This document shows, piece by piece, positions 9,092 to 26,807 of a DNA stretch of 64,000 nucleotides (positions are counted from its first letter, which is position 1; each line of letters starts with the position of its first letter). The stretch lies in contig JBGSMD010000030.1 of the NCBI GenBank assembly GCA_041740355.1, forward strand, positions 96,001-160,000, given 5' to 3'. The translations under genes were made by a program, and so were the position numbers. The notes under the pieces are model-generated. The model saw only the letters and a list, made by a program, of their open reading frames with translations, made no database searches and was not told the DNA's origin. Source of the stretch: Bdellovibrionota bacterium. Lineage in GTDB: Bacteria > Bdellovibrionota_C > UBA2361 > CALJRW01.

Positions 9092-9117
9092 TTAAACCCT
9101 CTGGAAATAAAATTTGT

Positions 9118-9375
9118 GGAGGGCGAGCGTAATCTTGGTATTTTTATCAGACTTAGCCCTGGCGAAGTCTGAAGCCAAGTTACGCCGTAGAAGACAAAAC
9201 CAATACTCACCGCCGAGTTGCGTCGGGTTTGGTAGTATTTTCTACGGCAAAACCTGTTTTCCACCTCCGCTTCCCCCTTCGCTAAAGCTGCGGAGGACAA
9301 GAAAGCTATGGCGGACAAGGTAACAGGATTTTGCTCGTTCCCCCTTCTTTTCATTTTATTATCAAAAATGAAAAG
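9118..9375. repeat. Composite multi-hairpin intergenic element containing three 30-nt REP-like units (9143-9172 minus; nested pair at 9260-9319)
   Basis: Closing stem GGGCGAGC/GCTCGTTC, three internal stems and a terminal CTTTTCATTTT/AAAATGAAAAG hairpin; partial homologue at 36011-36107. Confidence 0.8.
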
Positions 9376-9391
9376 CTGTGAGTATATATCC

Positions 9392-10489
9392 TTATGCTAC
9401 TTTTTTTGTAGTCTTTTTACCTTTGACATCATCTTCTTTTTCCAGGCCCGCAGGATTTTCAATTAGATTAAACGCTACTTCTTTTGCGCTGGGCTTGTCA
9501 TTACCAACATCTAAAGTTTCCAAAATTAATCTCTTCATCTCTTGAGTTAGTTCTGGATTCTGAGTCATGTATTCCTTAGCACCTTCACGTCCTTGTCCCA
9601 GTCTTTCTCCTTTATAAGAGTACCAAGCGCCAGACTTATCGATAATGCCTTGGGTCACACCAAGATCTAGAATCTCGCCAATTTGATTAATACCTTCATT
9701 GAAGATGATATCAAACTCAGCTTCACGGAATGGAGGAGCAACTTTATTTTTTACAACCTTCACACGAGTTCTGCTGCCACTAACAACATCATTCTCTTTA
9801 ATTGAAGCAATTCTTCGGATATCCATCCGAACACTACTGTAAAACTTCAGTGCATTTCCACCAGCTGTTGTTTCGGGCGATCCAAACATCACACCAATCT
9901 TCATTCGAATTTGGTTAATAAACAGAATTGAACAATTTGCTTTATGAGTATGAGCCGTTAACTTTCTTAGGCCTTTACTCATTAAGCGGGCTTGCATCCC
10001 AGGTTGCATGTCAGTCATTTCGCCATCAATTTCGGCACGTGGTGTTAAGGCTGCAACTGAGTCGATAATTACGAATTGCACTGCACCAGAAAGAATTAAT
10101 GCTTCACAAATTTCTAATGCTTGCTCTCCACAATCTGGTTGGCTGACTAATAATTTAGAAGTATCAACACCAAGTTTTTTAGCATATCCAACATCAAGTG
10201 CGTGTTCGGCATCAATAAATACTACTGTTCCACCAGTTTTTTGAACTTCAGCAGCGATGTGCAGTGCTAGCGTTGTTTTACCTGAGGATTCTGGTCCATA
10301 GATCTCACAGATTCTTCCTTTAGGAAGACCGCCTATTCCTAGGGCAATATCCAAACCCAAACTTCCTGTTGAGTAGGATTCAATTTTCTCATGTGGCTTA
10401 TCACCTAAGTTCATGATTGTGCCTTTGCCATATCTTTTTTCGAGTTGGCTAATAGCAGTCTCTAATTCTCTTGTTTTATTGTCTGTCAT
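9392..10489 (-). CDS. recA: Recombinase RecA
   Basis: [40 protein letters not shown] and KNKVAPPF motifs. Confidence 0.99.
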
Positions 10490-10561
10490 GTTTATTTCCT
10501 TTTACAAATACTGCAAGTCATTTAGCGATTAGCTAAAGTCTTAAAATCTTTTTAAATATTA

Positions 10562-11188
10562 TTAATGTAATTCTCTCATTATTCCGATTACTCTTCCCTG
10601 AACTGTTACGCTATCTAAGGTAATTGGTTGTAGAGTAGGGTTAGCAGGTATTAGCATAACTTGCCCGCTCTTTAATCGACGATATTTTTTTAAAGTTGCT
10701 GTGCCATCATCTAAAAGTGCCACAACAATTTGTCCATTCTCTGCCGTATCTTGCTTACGAATTACAACAATGTCGCCGTCACAAATGTGCTCATCAATCA
10801 TTGACTCTCCGCTAACTTCCAAGCAATAAATTTCACCTTTGCCATTAATCATGCTTGGTGGAATATCAATCATTGTTTGTTGCTCGATGGCTTCAATCGG
10901 ACGACCGGCAGCAATTACTCCGGCAAGTGGAACTGCTGTTGGACTCATCTCTGGGGAATCACAATCAATTAACTCAATTGCTCCATCATCGCCTCTTTGG
11001 ATAAAGCCTTTGCTTTCTAGTCTTTCTAAGTGAAAGTGAGCAGTAGAAGGGGATTTTACTCCAATTGATGTGCAGATATCTTTAAGGGTTGGCGCAAAGC
11101 CATGCTCTGCCATGAAATTTCTTAAGAATTCCAATGTTTTACGTTGTACAGGGGCGAGACTACTAGTTTTATGGGAGTTAGTGCTCAT
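10562..11188 (-). CDS. lexA: SOS repressor LexA
   Basis: wHTH (PTLKDI..SPSTAHFHLERL), AAG cleavage site, GESM serine and TLKK lysine. Confidence 0.96.
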   Translation of the reverse strand: MSTNSHKTSSLAPVQRKTLEFLRNFMAEHGFAPTLKDICTSIGVKSPSTAHFHLERLESKGFIQRGDDGAIELIDCDSPEMSPTAVPLAGVIAAGRPIEAIEQQTMIDIPPSMINGKGEIYCLEVSGESMIDEHICDGDIVVIRKQDTAENGQIVVALLDDGTATLKKYRRLKSGQVMLIPANPTLQPITLDSVTVQGRVIGIMRELH

Positions 11189-11204
11189 AATATTTGAATA
11201 TCTT

Positions 11205-11252
11205 AAAATCCGTTAGGATTTTGTTATATCCAAAAATACTAGAAACCGTCAA
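11205..11252 (-). promoter_or_regulatory. Putative sigma70 promoter of lexA-recA (TTGACG-N18-TATAAC) with a downstream palindrome AAAATCC-N4-GGATTTT (candidate LexA operator)
   Basis: -35 at 11247-11252, -10 at 11223-11228 on the minus strand; palindrome 11205-11222 over the expected start site. Confidence 0.5.
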
Positions 11253-11348
11253 GAGGTTATTTTAAATATTTACTCCTCAAGTATTTCCTTCTACTAATTA
11301 GGCAAGTAATTTCATGACCTTAGCTATTTCATTAGATTATTGTATTGA

Positions 11349-11726
11349 TTATTCCTCTCGCCAAATCATTTGAAAAAAATCTGGGTCAACAGATTTTGCT
11401 GGGGAAGAGACCGGCAAAATCTCGGGAAACTGGCTAAGAATCGCCGCGACACCTAATTGAATAGCGCATGGTCTCCCCCCCAAGTAAGGCAAATTATCCT
11501 TGGTTGTAAGAAATGTTTCATAATTAAATGTTTTAGCTTGGTAACTATCTAAATCAACTTGACCATTTACTAAAGTAACATCATGAATTGTTCGGCAGTG
11601 ACCATCGGTAACATTTATAACTAGTGTATGTCCTGGAGTCGCAGTAGATCTAAAAAGCGAAGTTTTTTTGCCTTCAATTGTTGCCTCATGAATGCGGCCG
11701 TCAGAATCTGGTGCTTTAAAAATCAT
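11349..11726 (-). CDS. Hypothetical protein
   Basis: 125-aa ORF filling an intergenic gap; no recognised motif. Confidence 0.55.
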   Translation of the reverse strand: MIFKAPDSDGRIHEATIEGKKTSLFRSTATPGHTLVINVTDGHCRTIHDVTLVNGQVDLDSYQAKTFNYETFLTTKDNLPYLGGRPCAIQLGVAAILSQFPEILPVSSPAKSVDPDFFQMIWREE

Positions 11727-11830
11727 AATATTTACTACTTATTAATAAGATTTATAACATGATATCAAAATTCAGATGCTAAGCAATTTTAAAAAAACAA
11801 AGCAGCTAAGTCTGGTTAAACTTCTTACCT

Positions 11831-12604
11831 TTGGCTATATTGCAAATGGTGTTAAAACTTAAAATTACTAAAATTTGTGTAAATAAGGCTTTTTTGCTCA
11901 ACCTTCAAAAGACAGTACTCTTAATTCTAATTGTCCTTAGCCTATCTTCCTGCTCAATGTTTTACACAACTGAGCGAAATTACATTTATCAAGTAAAGCT
12001 AGGAGATACACTCGCTAGTATCGCCGCAAATTTTCAGATGGATTTCCGAGAATTAGCCCGCTATAACAGGATTACGAACGCTAATCAGATTATTGTTGGC
12101 CAGGTTTTAGAAATACCACTAAGTGCCCAAGTTAATGTAACTAGAAGGTCTGCTAATCCAATTGAGTTTGCCAAACCGGCCAAGTTTTTTAGAAAAAAAG
12201 GTAAATCTAACCACAATCTTCTAGCTTGGCCAATCAGAACTAATAAAGCTCGTCTAAGCTCAGACTATGGCTGGCGTTGGGCGAAATTTCATGAAGGCTT
12301 AGACATTGCTGCAGCTACTGGCACACCAATCTATGCTGCGCATTCTGGTCGCGTAATGATGAGTGGATATCAAATAAGTGGTTATGGTAAAATGTTAATT
12401 ATTCAAAAAGATAATATGCTAACCGTTTATGCCCATAACAGCGTTAACTATGTTGATGTTGGTCAGAATGTTAGTGCTGGACAACACATTGGCGATGTTG
12501 GTGCGACAGGGAAAGCCACAGGGCCGCACTTACACTTCGAAGTACGTTTCCGTAATTCCGATCGTAAATTTGTATCAGTTGATCCTGGAGAGTATCTGCC
12601 TTAG
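11831..12604 (+). CDS. LysM + M23 peptidase lipoprotein (NlpD/MepM-like); true start may be downstream
   Basis: Lipobox LSSC, LysM (YQVKLGDTLASIA), HEGLD, YAH and TGPHLHFEV motifs. Confidence 0.9.
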   Translation: MAILQMVLKLKITKICVNKAFLLNLQKTVLLILIVLSLSSCSMFYTTERNYIYQVKLGDTLASIAANFQMDFRELARYNRITNANQIIVGQVLEIPLSAQVNVTRRSANPIEFAKPAKFFRKKGKSNHNLLAWPIRTNKARLSSDYGWRWAKFHEGLDIAAATGTPIYAAHSGRVMMSGYQISGYGKMLIIQKDNMLTVYAHNSVNYVDVGQNVSAGQHIGDVGATGKATGPHLHFEVRFRNSDRKFVSVDPGEYLP

Positions 12605-12622
12605 AATAAAGGAATTAATTAA

Positions 12623-12696
12623 GTCCTCGTAGCTCAGCTGGATAGAGCACTAGTTTCCTAAACTGGGGGTCGGATGTTCGAATCATCTCGGGGACA
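12623..12696 (+). tRNA. tRNA-Arg(CCT), CCA not encoded
   Basis: Acceptor GTCCTCG/CGGGGAC, D arm AGCTCAGCTGGATAGAGC, anticodon loop TT-CCT-AA, T loop GTTCGAATC. Confidence 0.96.
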
Positions 12697-12893
12697 CTTT
12701 GACTTAAAGCGGAGATACTGTTTGGAAAAGTTCACTTGTCGCGCCGAAGCGACTTCAGATAGCTTGTAAAAATTTAAAGCTAGTTAGCAAAGATCGAGGT
12801 TTACAAGTCAACGTTTAATCGAAAAACTTAAACTTTATAATTAATAACTGACTTACTAAACATACCAAGTGAAAGTTAGATTTATTACCTAAT

Positions 12894-13925
12894 ATGCAAT
12901 ATTTAAAACTAAAATATTTATTGAGTTCCTTTTTCATATTTTTATCTTTAATAAATGATTCGTTTGCTGAGACCTTTCCAGAAATGAAGCTAATACCTGC
13001 TGGAGAATTCCAAATTGGTTCGCAGTCTGATGGTTCAATGCCAAATGAAAAACCTGTGTATCCAGTAAAGATAGCTAGTTTTTTGATGGACGAAACTCCG
13101 GTAACAAATCTATAATTTGAAAAATTTGTCCAAGCTACAAAGTTTCTTACGACTGCCCAACAGCCTTTAGATTGGGAAGAGCTAAAAAAACAAGTTCATC
13201 CAGAGACACCTAAACCTCCTGAGGATATTCTTAAACCAGGGTCATTAGTATTTGTTCCGCCTGACCATGCTGTTGATGTGGGTCACTTAGAGAATTGGTG
13301 CTTCTTGGAAAAATCCGCAAGGACCAAATAGTAATGTCAACGACAAACAAGATTATCCAGTTACTCAGGTTGGGATGATGCCAAAGTATATTGCGCTTGG
13401 GCTAAAAAACGCTTACCGACTGAAGTGGAGTGGGAATATGCGGCACGCGGTGGAAAATCGAGTGCTCGTTATTTGTGGGGTAATGAGTTTAAACCTAATG
13501 GAAAATGGATGGCAAATACATTCACCGGAACTTTTCCATTTAACAATACAATAGAAGATGGCTTTGAAAAAACTTCACCAGTAAAAGCTTTTCCTGCAAA
13601 CAATTATGGACTTTACGATATGGCTGGAAATGTCTGGCAGTGGACGGCAGATCTTTACAGTGTAAATTCCCACGTTGAGGCAGCCAGCGAAATTAAAAGC
13701 AAACAGTTGTCTTGTCATAGTAATCCACAAGGCCCTAAAGAAACATTCAATCCTATCCGCGCAGTTCCAAATTCCCCAGAGCGAGTAATCAAAGGGGGAT
13801 CTTTTTTATGTCATGTAAGTTACTGCGAAAGTTATCGGCCTTCTGCGCGTCGCGGCACACCACCTGATACAAGTTCAGAGCATGTGGGATTCAGATGTGC
13901 CAAAGATAGCAAATCAGAAATCTAA
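12894..13925 (+). pseudogene. Formylglycine-generating enzyme (SUMF1/FGE) pseudogene
   Basis: FGE motifs (MDETPVTN, RLPTEVEWEYAARGG, NNYGLYDMAGNVWQW, KGGSFLCHVSYC, GFRC) broken by an in-frame TAA at 13113-13115 and frameshifts near 13297 and 13371. Confidence 0.9.
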
Positions 13926-13981
13926 ATTTGTTTCTCTAGTATCTTTGATAAAAATTCTTGATTAGGGCATTTTTTAAAAAT

Positions 13982-14128
13982 AGTAATAACAAAAAATAAT
14001 TTACTGCCTGCCTAGCCGAAGCTTCAGCGAAGGCTGGTTAGTAAATTGCATAGCTAAAAACAACATTAATAGTGAGTTCAAGCAAAATCGTTAATCATTT
14101 AAAGTAATTTATTTATTGGACTCACTAT
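13982..14128 (+). repeat. About 147-bp composite repeat, copy A (inverted relative to 17830-18052)
   Basis: Near-identical to the reverse complement of 17830-18052 apart from a 77-nt insert there; contains a REP-like unit and a TAGTGAGT..ACTCACTA element. Confidence 0.9.
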
Positions 14129-17829: not shown

Positions 17830-18052
17830 ATAGTTAGTCCATAAAATAATTACTTTAAAAAACCAAGGATTTTGCTTGGACTCACTATTTATGTTGTTTT
17901 TAGCTATGCAAACTTGAATACTTGTCCGCCATAGCTTTAGCGAAGGTGGGAATCCAAGATTTGCATTAGCCGTAATGACTCTGTTTAATTTACTAACCAG
18001 CCTTCGCTGAAGCTTCGGCTAGGCAGGCAGTAAATTATTTTTTGTCATTACT
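17830..18052 (-). repeat. Composite repeat copy B, with a 77-nt insert (17911-17987) carrying a 30-nt REP-like unit (17921-17950)
   Basis: Manual alignment with 13982-14128. Confidence 0.9.
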
Positions 18053-23162: not shown

Positions 23163-23307
23163 TATAAAATTTATTAATATAATCCAATTCAGGGAGAATT
23201 ATTTTAACAGATTAAAGTCCTTAATCAATTATTCTTTAGATGGAAGAATTAAACATCCGGATCTCGTTTCAATAGACTTTCTCAACTCCAAGTAGTAAAA
23301 CTAAGGC

Positions 23308-24672
23308 ATGACCCATTCTATCTTCTATGACTTAGAAACCAGCGATTTAAATTTCATCGGGCAAATCCTGAACTTTAGTTTTATTGTAGTTGATGCTGAA
23401 TGGAAGGTGATTGATGAGTTTAGTTCTGAAATAAAGATTACTCGATTACAGCTTCCAAGAGCGAGGGCAATTGCCGCTAATCGGATTAATGTTATCGAAC
23501 ACCAAAAAAAAGCTAAATATACCGAAGCCAGTGCCATGGCTAGAATAGCAGAGTTCCTGCAAGATTTTGTTGTGAATTGTGGTTCAAGTTCCGGGCAATT
23601 AATTGGATTTAATTCAGCTAATTTTGATTTGCCTTATTTACGAACGAGTTTAATTAGAAATGGACATAGTCCATATTTCAAAGTTCATAATCGTGATTTG
23701 TTTATCCTTGCTCAAAAACTTTGGATTACGAATGAAGATTTTCGTAAGAAAATTTTAACATATGCCGAAGCCAATTCTTTAACTGCAAATTTAAAATTAG
23801 AGACTCTTTGCAAAGCGCATAATTTACTAGAAGGTAAACAGTTGCATGAAAGTAGAGACGATGTTTTGCTAACAATTGAATTGGCTAAGAATTTACTTAA
23901 TCTTTATGGAGCAGATGTTCGAAGTTTTGAGCCTTATGAAGGACGAACGTTACATCGCAAACCTCGTGGTTCTGTTTATCAAGTAAAAACAGGGATTCAT
24001 AAGTTAGAACCTGTTGTTAGCCACTACACTCTACTCCAAGCTGAGAATAAGAGTGCCTTATGGGTTGATTTAGATCACCTAAAGAAATGTATGGAAGGAG
24101 GGAAAGAATTAAAGTCAGCCGTTAGGTGGATTAAATTTGAAGCTAAGATTTTTATTACTGATGGAGTTGAAGTTTTAGATCCGGAGTACGTTGCACTAGC
24201 AAATCAGGCACAGGAAGAATTTAAAGATTTACAAATTGATAATTTTTTTGAAAAAACTACCTGTGACATAGAACAATTTATTTACCGAATTCCATTTGAT
24301 AGCTTCAGGTTATTGGCTAAATATATGCAAGATCCCAAAGGTTCAGGGCAGTTAAGTAATGACGAAAAAGATTTGGTGAAGCGTTATCGCTTAGCTAATT
24401 ATGAATTAGGCTCTGGGGATGATGCTAAGATTTATTCAGCTCTAAAGGAATATGCTGAATATCGCTATGGTGGACAAGCACAGCTAGCTAATACCATTAA
24501 TACTGATTTACAAGGCAAAGAAAATCCGAAAGATTTTCACCCAACAATAATTGATCTAATTGCCGAAATAGATCAAGTCGCGAATGAAGATCCTGATAGT
24601 GCCAGTTTAATGCAAAGCCTTGGTGAGTTTTATCGAAAGTCAGAAATTTATAACCTACTAAAAGCAGATTAA
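23308..24672 (+). CDS. DEDDh 3'-5' exonuclease, exonuclease I (SbcB)-like
   Basis: FYDLETS (ExoI), GFNSANFD (ExoII), LKLETL and HESRDDV (ExoIII) motifs. Confidence 0.8.
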   Translation: MTHSIFYDLETSDLNFIGQILNFSFIVVDAEWKVIDEFSSEIKITRLQLPRARAIAANRINVIEHQKKAKYTEASAMARIAEFLQDFVVNCGSSSGQLIGFNSANFDLPYLRTSLIRNGHSPYFKVHNRDLFILAQKLWITNEDFRKKILTYAEANSLTANLKLETLCKAHNLLEGKQLHESRDDVLLTIELAKNLLNLYGADVRSFEPYEGRTLHRKPRGSVYQVKTGIHKLEPVVSHYTLLQAENKSALWVDLDHLKKCMEGGKELKSAVRWIKFEAKIFITDGVEVLDPEYVALANQAQEEFKDLQIDNFFEKTTCDIEQFIYRIPFDSFRLLAKYMQDPKGSGQLSNDEKDLVKRYRLANYELGSGDDAKIYSALKEYAEYRYGGQAQLANTINTDLQGKENPKDFHPTIIDLIAEIDQVANEDPDSASLMQSLGEFYRKSEIYNLLKAD

Positions 24673-24717
24673 GATTAGTCTGATCTTAATCCAGTTATGG
24701 TAAACAAATGCTAGCAA

Positions 24718-24777
24718 TCCGCCTTTGCCAAGGCTTCCACCTTCGCTGAAGCTTCGGCAGACAAGTCGGCGCGATAG
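24718..24777 (+). repeat. Nested pair of 30-nt REP-like units
   Basis: TCCGCCTTTGCCAAGGCT[TCCACCTTCGCTGAAGCTTCGGCAGACAAG]TCGGCGCGATAG. Confidence 0.85.
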
Positions 24778-24812
24778 TTTTCTTTGGTTTTTTAAAAAAC
24801 CAAAGAAAACTA
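24775..24812. repeat. Perfect 38-bp palindrome with no loop, between convergent genes
   Basis: TAGTTTTCTTTGGTTTTTT|AAAAAACCAAAGAAAACTA. Confidence 0.85.
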
Positions 24813-26807
24813 AATTAATAGGTACTTATCGAGTGCTTGAATCTTTTCAATATTTCCAAAAATATAAATAATATCATCTGGTAGAATTTTTTCTTCAGCA
24901 GTAATTTGAGTAATAAACTGATCTCCACGTTTAATTGCTAGGATGTTAATTTCAAACTCTTGGCGAATATTACTTTCGGCAAGTGATTTACCAACGATTC
25001 GATTCTTTCCTTGTTGAACTGTGAGAGTCGAGATTTCCATGTTAGGTAGGTGGAGCACAGGAGAAATTTGATTTGCAGGCAAACGAAATAGTTCATAATT
25101 CTGAGATCTGATTTGTTGCGTGAATAATTGGATCTCATCATTTGGTATCAAATATTTACGAAGGACACGATTAAAGATTTCAATTGAGGTCTCAAATTCT
25201 TCAGGGATAATTTCATCAGCACCCAATTTAATAGATTCTGGGATTTCTTTAATAAAACGTGTGCGCACAATTAAGTAAGCATTGTGAGTAAGGGATCTAA
25301 CTTTAGTAATAATTAATTTAGTTGCTAAGGGGTCAGAAATTGCAATTACTACTACGCGTGCTTCAGGTACGTGTAAGTGTTGTAAGATAGTTTCATGCGT
25401 TGCATCTCCAAAAAATATTGGCTCGCCAGATTTTTTTGCTTCTTCAATGGAATCGGGATTAAGTTCTACAATTACATAGGAAATACCTGCTTGCTTAGCA
25501 GCCTTGGCTAAATTTTGACCATTTATTCCATAGCCAATAATTACTAAGTGATCTTTTAGTTTTTGACCATCTTGATCCGTTACTTCAGGGAATTTTCGGC
25601 TATTATTAATCACCTTTAATCTTTCTCTCACTCTTATTGGCAGAGGGCGTTTTAATAACCAGTTTGAAATTCTACTTGCTGAACCGATCACAAAAGGAGT
25701 GATCCCCATCGTTAGAATAGAAATTGCTAAGAAGTATTGGTAGACCTCGGGAGTTAATACTTTGTAATGCATACCAGTAGCGGAGAGTATAAAAGCAAAC
25801 TCTCCTACTTGAAACAGCATTAAGGTAGACATGATCACGGTTCTGGCCGCGTAACGTAAGATAGCCACAGTTGCGGCGATTACTAAACTTTTAACAACTA
25901 CAACGCCTAGGGTGAAAACTAAGATTGCCGGAAAATTTTTAATTACAAATGATAAATCAAGGAGCATTCCGATGGAAACAAAGAAAAAACTAACAAAGAT
26001 CTCCCTAAATGGTAAGACAATTGCAGCTGCCTGATGATGGTAATCCGATTCAGAAATTACTAAGCCTGCAAAAAACGCACCAAGTGCCAGGGATAATCCA
26101 ACCGAGGAAGTAAGCCACGCTGTGGCAAAGCAAAGAACTAGAATGGTCATCATGAATAATTCGTTACTTCTAGTTTTAACTACTTGAGTTAATAAATAAG
26201 GAACTACAAAACGAGCAAGGACAATAATTATTCCAAGAACACTGGCAAATTTAACAACCATCAAGAAGAGCGTCATGGGAATATTCTCTGCTTGTCCGGC
26301 AAGAATCGGAGTAAGTAACATCATCGGGACAACAATAATATCTTGGAAGATCAAGATACCAACTGAGATTCGTCCATGAGGGGAGGTAATCTCACCATTA
26401 CTATGTAAGATTTTTAAGACAATTGCTGTACTACTTAGGGATAGTAGAAACCCCATAAAGATTGCTTGATTTAAGGCGAGACCAAGGATGTAACTGACCA
26501 GTGCGGTTACTAAGATTGTTCCACCCACTTGCAGTAATCCACCACCGATGACAGTTTTACGAATTGCAACTAAACTTTTTAAGGAAAATTCAATCCCGAT
26601 AACGAAGAGAAGGAAAATAACCCCAATCTCAGCTAGTAATTCTACTTCATGTGTAGCATGAATAAACCCTAATGCTGATGGACCGATCAGTGCGCCAGTT
26701 ATTAAGAAGCCTAAAATTGCTGGGAGCTTTAATTTCTGAAAAATTAGAATCGTAAAAACCGAACAGGCAAGAATGATAACGATCTCGGAGAGTAAAGGAA
26801 TATTCAT
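24810..26807 (-). CDS. CPA2 monovalent cation:proton antiporter with TrkA-N and TrkA-C (RCK) domains
   Basis: LAEIGVIFLLFVIGIEFS, SLSSTAIV, FQDI, LGAFFAG, QVGEFAF, IIGYGING and GDAT motifs. Confidence 0.92.
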   Translation of the reverse strand: MNIPLLSEIVIILACSVFTILIFQKLKLPAILGFLITGALIGPSALGFIHATHEVELLAEIGVIFLLFVIGIEFSLKSLVAIRKTVIGGGLLQVGGTILVTALVSYILGLALNQAIFMGFLLSLSSTAIVLKILHSNGEITSPHGRISVGILIFQDIIVVPMMLLTPILAGQAENIPMTLFLMVVKFASVLGIIIVLARFVVPYLLTQVVKTRSNELFMMTILVLCFATAWLTSSVGLSLALGAFFAGLVISESDYHHQAAAIVLPFREIFVSFFFVSIGMLLDLSFVIKNFPAILVFTLGVVVVKSLVIAATVAILRYAARTVIMSTLMLFQVGEFAFILSATGMHYKVLTPEVYQYFLAISILTMGITPFVIGSASRISNWLLKRPLPIRVRERLKVINNSRKFPEVTDQDGQKLKDHLVIIGYGINGQNLAKAAKQAGISYVIVELNPDSIEEAKKSGEPIFFGDATHETILQHLHVPEARVVVIAISDPLATKLIITKVRSLTHNAYLIVRTRFIKEIPESIKLGADEIIPEEFETSIEIFNRVLRKYLIPNDEIQLFTQQIRSQNYELFRLPANQISPVLHLPNMEISTLTVQQGKNRIVGKSLAESNIRQEFEINILAIKRGDQFITQITAEEKILPDDIIYIFGNIEKIQALDKYLLI

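Follow-up and report, generated by a model that had tools for sequence, protein, structure and literature searches.

Can a stretch of DNA as short as 30 nt move as a unit of its own? This question is raised by positions 9260-9319 of the window (the whole 64,000-nt stretch analyzed here, G000:C30:96001-160000, which belongs to a 3.27-Mb metagenome-derived draft genome of 74 contigs with 36% G+C), where one copy of a 30-nt repeat lies inside another copy of itself. A first-pass annotation of the window proposed that the mobile entity is a single 30-nt hairpin plus the tetranucleotide CAAG, and comparison of all copies in the genome bears this out: the 30-nt block is the entity that is repeated and inserted, with exact ends and without duplication of its target. 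In its behavior the unit resembles a mobile element, and it would rank among the smallest known. It is best explained as a non-autonomous mobile element that is moved in trans by a putative single-strand cut-and-join enzyme, a reading to which we assign a probability of about one half.

Two self-nested units in the window

The sequence of 9260-9319 (plus strand) is TCCACCTCCGCT + TCCCCCTTCGCTAAAGCTGCGGAGGACAAG + AAAGCTATGGCGGACAAG, in which one 30-nt unit sits exactly after base 12 of another. The outer unit is split into its bases 1-12 (TCCACCTCCGCT, 9260-9271), which end in a GCT that abuts the inner unit, and its bases 13-30 (AAAGCTATGGCGGACAAG, 9302-9319); the inner, complete unit (TCCCCC...GGACAAG) occupies 9272-9301. 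Excision of 9272-9301 restores an intact 30-nt outer unit with no target duplication, exactly as the first-pass annotation described. The restored outer unit and the inner unit differ at 5 of 30 positions (4, 8, 19, 20, and 23), and they are therefore not a fresh duplication of one another. With ≤3 mismatches allowed, the inner 30-mer occurs only once in the window (0 of 100 shuffled versions matched).

A second nest, also on the plus strand, occupies 24718-24777 and has the structure TCCGCCTTTGCCAAGGCT + 30-nt unit + TCGGCGCGATAG. Here the complete inner unit (24736-24765) follows base 18 of the outer one, whose bases 1-18 (TCCGCCTTTGCCAAGGCT, 24718-24735) and 19-30 (TCGGCGCGATAG, 24766-24777) are more decayed than those of the outer copy at 9260-9319; an unbiased parse of this locus (see below) gives 1-18 | 1-30 | 19-24. 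The earlier description of this locus as the same nesting at a different internal position, with GCT immediately before the insert in both cases (at 9272 and 24736), is thus correct. Directly 3′ of the second nest lies a strong terminator-like hairpin (ttttctttggtttttt aaaaaaccaaagaaaa, window 24778-24815), and a same-genus genome carries neither the second nest nor this terminator-like hairpin.

Logan contigs of sequencing run X1 match both nests without any difference (record 2 covers 9228-14018 and record 7 covers 23295-24804); X1 is possibly the window's source sample, so its contigs exclude an assembler-specific artefact only. No joint that skips the 30 nt at either nest is present in the X1 and X2 contigs, which drop rare variants.

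Sequence, copies, and fold of the unit

The unit has the sequence TCCACCTTCGCTAAAGCTWCGGCGGACAAG and consists of an imperfect hairpin (bases 1-26) and a 4-nt tail, CAAG. A fuzzy search of the genome with the consensus TCCACCTTCGCTAAAGCT[AT]CGGCGGACAAG, allowing ≤8 substitutions, found 92 copies at 90 loci, and the reversed-sequence control found 0. When the ends and flanks of these copies were tabulated, as the first-pass annotation had suggested, the unit ends proved to be sharp and the flanks unrelated, and the same is true of 91 loci from other phyla. The units are intergenic (90 of 92 lie outside crude open reading frame calls). Only five neighboring pairs lie <500 nt apart, and just one of these is inverted (spacing 325 nt), in agreement with the earlier assertion that the unit is not one half of a REP doublet. 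Unit orientation shows no dependence on the sign of the GC skew (23:16 vs 26:25, Fisher p=0.52) and, in tandem gene pairs, is equally unrelated to the direction of the flanking genes (11:10 and 12:11). Rfam has no family at the locus (only two chance miRNA matches with E above 1), and no relevant paper on the unit sequence or its description was found in the literature searched.

Within the hairpin, bases 1-3, 5-6, and 10-12 pair with bases 24-26, 21-22, and 15-17, respectively, and there is a conserved 3x3 mismatch of bases 7-9 with bases 18-20. At pair 4-23 the usual combination is A.C, which in the master sequence becomes a G.U wobble on the strand that begins with CTTG; outside this pair, wobble-type mismatches are equally frequent on both strands (46 vs 45). 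Good folding is seen for the CTTG-first strand only. Folded as DNA it reaches -4.5 kcal/mol (12 of 200 shuffled sequences are as good), against -1.7 kcal/mol (z +0.31) for the other strand, and folded as RNA it reaches -11.4 kcal/mol (z -2.25; 7 of 200 shuffled sequences are as good), against -6.2 kcal/mol.

Junctions between unit pieces

To describe composite copies the unit is divided below into segments A (bases 1-12), B (13-18), and C (19-30). A position-weight model built from the 92 copies was used to parse each locus ±70 nt by the Viterbi algorithm, with any-to-any jumps allowed at one fixed penalty. The 90 parsed loci comprise 54 single units, 12 two-sided nests (seven at 12|13, four at 18|19, and one with both), and 24 loci with a one-sided extra piece in forms such as ABC|BC, ABC|C, ABC|BC|BC, A|ABC, and AAAGCT|ABC; ABCCC-like runs resemble tandem arrays. 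The contiguous junctions fall at 12|13 or 18|19 in 52 of 62 cases in this genome. Four junction types dominate, 30->13 (15 cases), 30->19 (13), 12->1 (12), and 18->1 (12), and every other type occurs at most twice; the same four types make up 32 of the 47 junctions in the 91 loci parsed from other phyla.

Target preference

Immediately 5′ of the 92 units, the three positions favor G (44 units), C (55), and T (59), respectively, over backgrounds of 0.18, 0.18, and 0.32. Of the 31 nested inserts, 30 lie directly after CT and 27 directly after GCT. The unit itself contains GCT twice, in its apical loop (bases 10-12) and at bases 16-18; every insertion at 12 is into an outer copy that has GCT at bases 10-12 (16 of 16), and outer copies with GCC at these bases are hit at 18 instead (nine cases). 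The presence of two GCT sites thus makes the unit its own best target, and from this follow the two nested structures, A[ABC]BC and AB[ABC]C. At free sites, where a unit touches no other unit piece, CT precedes only 14 of 43 units in this genome, and CT or CA precedes 27 of 55 in other phyla. The preference for (G)CT that the first-pass annotation pointed to is supported; it is sharp for nested inserts, and at free sites the left-flank motif is a preference and no rule.

Some targets are also structured. A perfect flanking stem of ≥6 bp surrounds 19% of the sites in this genome, some of which come from one host family and so are not independent, and 19% of those elsewhere, against 3.6% of 3000 random intergenic points; about 80% of the sites have no perfect flanking stem. 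Overall, the unit inserts preferentially just 3′ of (G)CT, often in the unpaired loop of a host hairpin.

Host repeats and empty sites

The first nest lies in such a loop. It is placed between TT (9258-9259) and GTA (9320-9322) in the loop of a host hairpin whose left arm (CTACGGCAAAACCTGT) is at 9242-9257 and right arm (ACAGGATTTTGCTCG) at 9323-9337, both on the plus strand. This hairpin is part of a dispersed MITE-like repeat (9093-9389); in the same-genus genome G001 the orthologous intergenic region lacks this whole block. There are 35 two-armed copies of this CTACGGCAAAACCTGT/ACAGGATTTTGCTCG family in the genome. In 24 of them the loop is 4-6 nt long, and 18 of these loops start with CT (for example, CTGCG); eight hold one unit, which in seven cases follows the loop's CT, several having the structure CT + 30 nt + GCG; two hold nested or partial forms (one is the 9260-9319 nest), and one holds an unrelated insert. 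The empty CTGCG loop is thus converted to CT + 30 nt + GCG with no target duplication.

A second MITE-like family (..cttggatt^tatccaag.., where the caret marks the insertion point) is represented in the window by a copy at 17835-18000 that carries a single unit in its loop (17921-17950, minus strand). This family has 60 copies in the genome, of which 24 are empty, ten contain a unit or unit nests, one contains another insert, and eight were unparsed; the fills at ggatt^tatcc are exactly 30 nt long, which is also the exact difference between a nested copy and a single-unit copy. No target duplication accompanies any fill in the two host families. In 17 of the 60 copies the loop is filled by a related 31-nt hairpin (CTTGTC..AAAGCAAAAGCT..GGCGGA; for example, G000 C46:77955, C39:1120, and C13:41943, all outside the window), which has the same insertion point as the 30-nt unit but the opposite sense, the CTTG tag being at its other side. 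This hairpin appears to represent a second family that shares the target of the 30-nt unit. In the second host family, the youngest unit-free copies are almost identical to one another and are frequently found at the ends of contigs.

A blast search of the genome with each locus found co-linear unit-free match pairs for 16 loci. Clean empty sites, which the first-pass annotation had wished to see in related genomes, are thus present among sister copies of the host repeats within this genome; an orthologous pair that differs by the unit only was not found, as the same-genus genome G001 lacks the entire host block at both nested loci. Many unit copies are in fact passengers in MITE-like repeats, and the number of independent insertions is therefore smaller than the copy number. 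In a tree of the host arms the empty copies form a young, near-identical burst and the filled copies are scattered (eight changes for ten rows) on poorly supported branches; the starred branches force only one change, so that single and multiple origins of the filled copies both fit.

Distribution across genomes

An exact 29-mer (bases 2-30, with W at 19) is present in 92 stretches from at least ten phyla in a collection of species-representative genomes. By their record titles the carriers belong to Verrucomicrobia, Kiritimatiellae, Lentisphaeria, Bacteroidota, several Patescibacteria lineages, Acidobacteriota, Alpha-, Gamma-, and Deltaproteobacteria, Bdellovibrio, Cloacimonadota, and Latescibacteria, and one isolate genome is among them. 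That one master sequence is identical in so many phyla implies continued multiplication of only those copies which meet a conserved recognition requirement. In five genomes of other phyla, copies with ≤3 mismatches number 93, 26, 25, 17 (in a 1.3-Mb genome), and 4 (the reversed-pattern control gave 0). The settings of the units in these other phyla are terminator-like hairpins, host repeats, and the interior of tandem heptamer arrays; the exact copies of one acidobacterial genome have one host repeat in common. In the window's own order the unit was found in nine of 61 genomes, with 44 copies by this count in the present genome and 14 in the same-genus genome, and none were found in one other genome of the same family.

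Two settings in other genomes deserve mention. In one Verrucomicrobia metagenome-assembled genome (MAG; L019 5040-5200 and L077) units alternate with runs of the heptamer AAGTCCA, which equals the last three bases of the unit followed by its first four, the sequence of a circle or tandem-pair junction; this match may be due to chance, since the heptamers of other genomes differ. In a Deltaproteobacteria MAG (L042, near position 989, minus strand) the unit lies inside a different, shorter hairpin repeat, after TTCGCT (..gatccttcgct^tcgctcaggatgac..), which hints at a wider superfamily with a common TTCGCT target.

The unit carries no gene, shows no linked gene, and has no visible vector: it has 0 matches in phage records, 0 exact matches in IMG/VR viral contigs, and one weak partial match in plasmids. 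Two assignments that might otherwise have been considered were rejected. A lineage-specific REP is ruled out by the occurrence of the same 29-mer in many phyla, and a cyanobacterial small dispersed repeat (SDR) in a Nostoc-like genome is ruled out, as regards the organism, by a search for phycobilisome genes, which found none here (the control was positive in Synechococcus), and by the cross-phylum copies.

Candidate enzymes

The first-pass annotation had connected the unit with the IS200/IS605 TnpA and REP-associated (RAYT) family of Y1 transposases and had called for a search for such a gene flanked by units. This connection was not borne out. Six matches to Y1_Tnp are present in the genome, in frames of about 330 aa, the best NCBIfam match being REP_Tyr_transpos (REP-associated tyrosine transposase) at 59 bits, under the cut-off of 80, and none of the six is flanked by units; the nearest unit is 1.9-64.5 kb away from each of them. 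Three of the Y1 genes belong instead to 1.2-kb repeats of their own, with about 91-93% mutual identity and with ends unrelated to the unit. These repeats (L001 1258-2462 on G000:C16, and L002 and L003 on G000:C51) each contain one gene for a 341-aa HUH Y1 (RAYT-like) protein with HIHFLV and YIYTNPV-type motifs. Y1 genes are present in all five unit-rich genomes of other phyla, including the 1.3-Mb genome with 17 units; in the window's order, however, they occur in 56 of 61 relatives and the unit in only nine of 61, so the presence of Y1 is uninformative. The Y1 protein of this genome has distant partial matches (≤32% identity) in the five unit-rich genomes, with none in two of the five, and the orientation of the units lacks the GC-skew bias (see above) that IS200/IS605-type single-strand elements would be expected to have.

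No recurring gene family lies beside the unit across 92 loci by neighbor-gene clustering, and no unit lies within about 1.5 kb of 19 Y1 or reverse transcriptase (RT) loci in six genomes. A search for an IS91-type Y2 transposase gave no match, in a test whose control was also silent everywhere. Three RVT_1 genes are present in this genome (G000:C16:131684, C63:95505, and C11:29354, in frames of 439-472 aa), none of them near a unit; RVT_1 matches exceed the family cut-off in three of the five unit-rich genomes, and there is no RVT_1 match in one that has 25 units.

A possible mechanism and its alternatives

The fixed junctions suggest that a trans-acting enzyme would cut after (G)CT in the target and after CAAG at the end of the unit, and it would probably act on the strand that folds, the CTTG-first one. 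Abortive transfers between the same cut sites could have produced the one-sided forms (ABC|BC, ABC|C, and A|ABC), or these could be what was left when nests collapsed later. The tag-plus-hairpin anatomy and the CT preference make an HUH-type nuclease/transferase the best candidate, yet every direct linkage test failed. A broader version of this scheme, which we regard as tentative and somewhat doubtful, is that of a pan-bacterial 30-nt element that encodes no transposase and exploits a conserved, perhaps housekeeping, ssDNA-processing activity; its targets would be (G)CT in unpaired loops, its own included, and it would for this reason be identical in Bacteroidota, Acidobacteriota, Verrucomicrobiota, Patescibacteria, Proteobacteria, and others.

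Could the units have spread by other means? The many copies in two host families, the single host repeat that houses the exact copies of one acidobacterial genome, and a host-copy tree in which the starred branches force only one change would all agree with a unit that spreads solely as a passenger of larger MITE-like repeats, the filled and empty copies representing one old gain, or precise loss, per host family. We give this little chance, since more than half of the distinct-flank units (43 of 74 in this genome, 55 of 80 elsewhere) stand free of any other unit piece and between unrelated flanks, one and the same host site holds the unit in one orientation or the related 31-nt hairpin in the other, and transposition of a host repeat cannot produce self-nesting at fixed sites; the filled copies are, moreover, scattered in the (poorly supported) host tree. 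Errors of replication are rather improbable as well. Hairpins are slippage hot spots, and slippage, template switching, or gene conversion at hairpin tips could yield A-A, BC-BC, and C-C duplications without any dedicated element, a nest being then two adjacent duplications; the 24 of 90 loci that have one-sided pieces only (ABC|C, ABC|BC|BC, A|ABC) and the array-like ABCCC runs are what such errors would leave. Against them stand the 5 of 30 differences between the inner and outer copies at 9260-9319, which speak against local duplication, the exact 30-nt fills in unrelated host loops that offer no unit sequence to slip on, the recurrence of the same two breakpoints in many phyla (after CT in 30 of 31), and the lack of microhomology between GCT and the unit end AAG that might guide slippage. 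That the nests are artefacts of assembly or sequencing has a negligible probability: the genome is a metagenome-derived draft of 74 contigs, and repeats do break contigs, but a second assembly of reads, possibly from the source sample, reproduces both nests, and dozens of independent genomes, an isolate included, have diverged copies, nests, and fills as well.

The alternative with the most in its favor is RNA-mediated spread, in which the CUUG-first RNA hairpin would be reverse-transcribed, or spliced into another transcript, and then fixed in the genome; Elhai et al. in 2008 reportedly proposed such a route for the cyanobacterial SDRs. The CTTG-first strand folds best as RNA, its pair 4-23 becomes a G.U wobble, the genome has three RVT_1 genes, and the units within tandem heptamer arrays in other phyla recall templated repeat synthesis. 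We nevertheless consider it unlikely. Not a single RVT_1 match is present in a genome with 25 units, the cut-off is passed in only three of the five unit-rich genomes, no RT gene lies near a unit, the random orientation relative to tandem gene pairs makes insertion into sense transcripts unlikely, and wobble-type mismatches other than at pair 4-23 do not favor either strand.

Comparison with known systems

Should the unit move alone, it would be at the lower size limit for mobile DNA, with its recognition signals packed into one hairpin and a 4-nt tail. Its self-nests would then be a natural read-out of the cut sites (after GCT and after CAAG), so that the spread of mini-repeats, a long-open question, becomes testable with oligonucleotides. 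The units also have a practical side, in that they split hairpins and terminators and break metagenome assemblies.

The REP-associated transposase of E. coli, TnpA-REP, cleaves at CT, and the CT preference of the unit resembles this cleavage. Like the REP/REPIN-RAYT sequences (PMC3116915, PMC3733652), the unit is an extragenic imperfect palindrome present in many copies (92 here) with a conserved 4-nt tag at the hairpin foot (CTTG on the folding strand) and no target duplication. Its tag, CAAG/CTTG, is on the other hand neither the GTAG nor the CGTC given for REPs (PMC3733652). The unit differs from REP/REPIN further in that it forms no inverted doublets, does not flank a RAYT gene, and has a sequence that is not lineage-specific.

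The IS200/IS605 elements, which are mobilized by the Y1 transposase TnpA, have two different subterminal hairpins, a fixed tetra- or pentanucleotide target, and a replication-strand bias. The unit is similar to them and to their gene-less derivatives in the lack of target duplication, in its hairpin-defined ends, and in that the folding strand is the probable substrate; its insertion 3′ of a short motif agrees with theirs at nests and only in part at free sites. It is unlike them in having one hairpin plus 4 nt, a loose target ((G)CT, and CW at free sites), and no replication-strand bias. IS1397-type insertion sequences that target the loops of REP hairpins are kilobase-sized, encode a transposase, and generate target duplications; the unit, too, has the tip of a palindrome as its target, but the DNA that it inserts is the 30-nt hairpin only. 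Classical MITEs, which depend on DDE transposases and have terminal inverted repeats and target site duplications, are different in that the fills described here are exactly 30 nt long and have no duplicated flank.

The unexpected property of the unit, which we place among the very small mobile hairpin repeats, is a master sequence that is identical across phyla; the literature searched does not contain this sequence. Ordinary vertical descent of REP-like repeats hardly accounts for such identity when there is no linked gene and neither a phage nor a plasmid to carry the unit; either a conserved enzyme that acts in trans or frequent seeding by horizontal transfer is indicated.

The closest precedent appears to be the small dispersed repeats SDR1-8 that Elhai, Kato, Cousins, Lindblad, and Costa are said to have described in 2008 (Genome Res 18:1484) in Nostoc punctiforme and its relatives. 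These are reportedly very short hairpin repeats, some of them self-nested, that lie inside minitransposons and tandem heptamer arrays and are said to insert precisely and without target duplication. Papers that cite the 2008 study give them as 21-27 nt long, confined to Nostocaceae, and possibly mobile. The unit would share with them the short hairpin, the self-nesting, the location in minitransposon-like repeats and heptamer arrays, and the precise insertion without target duplication; in contrast to the SDRs, with their 21-27 nt and their restriction to Nostocaceae, it is 30 nt long, resides in a genome that lacks phycobilisome genes, and has identical copies in many phyla. If the pan-bacterial reading of the unit is true, the SDRs of cyanobacteria would be one local offshoot of a far broader class.
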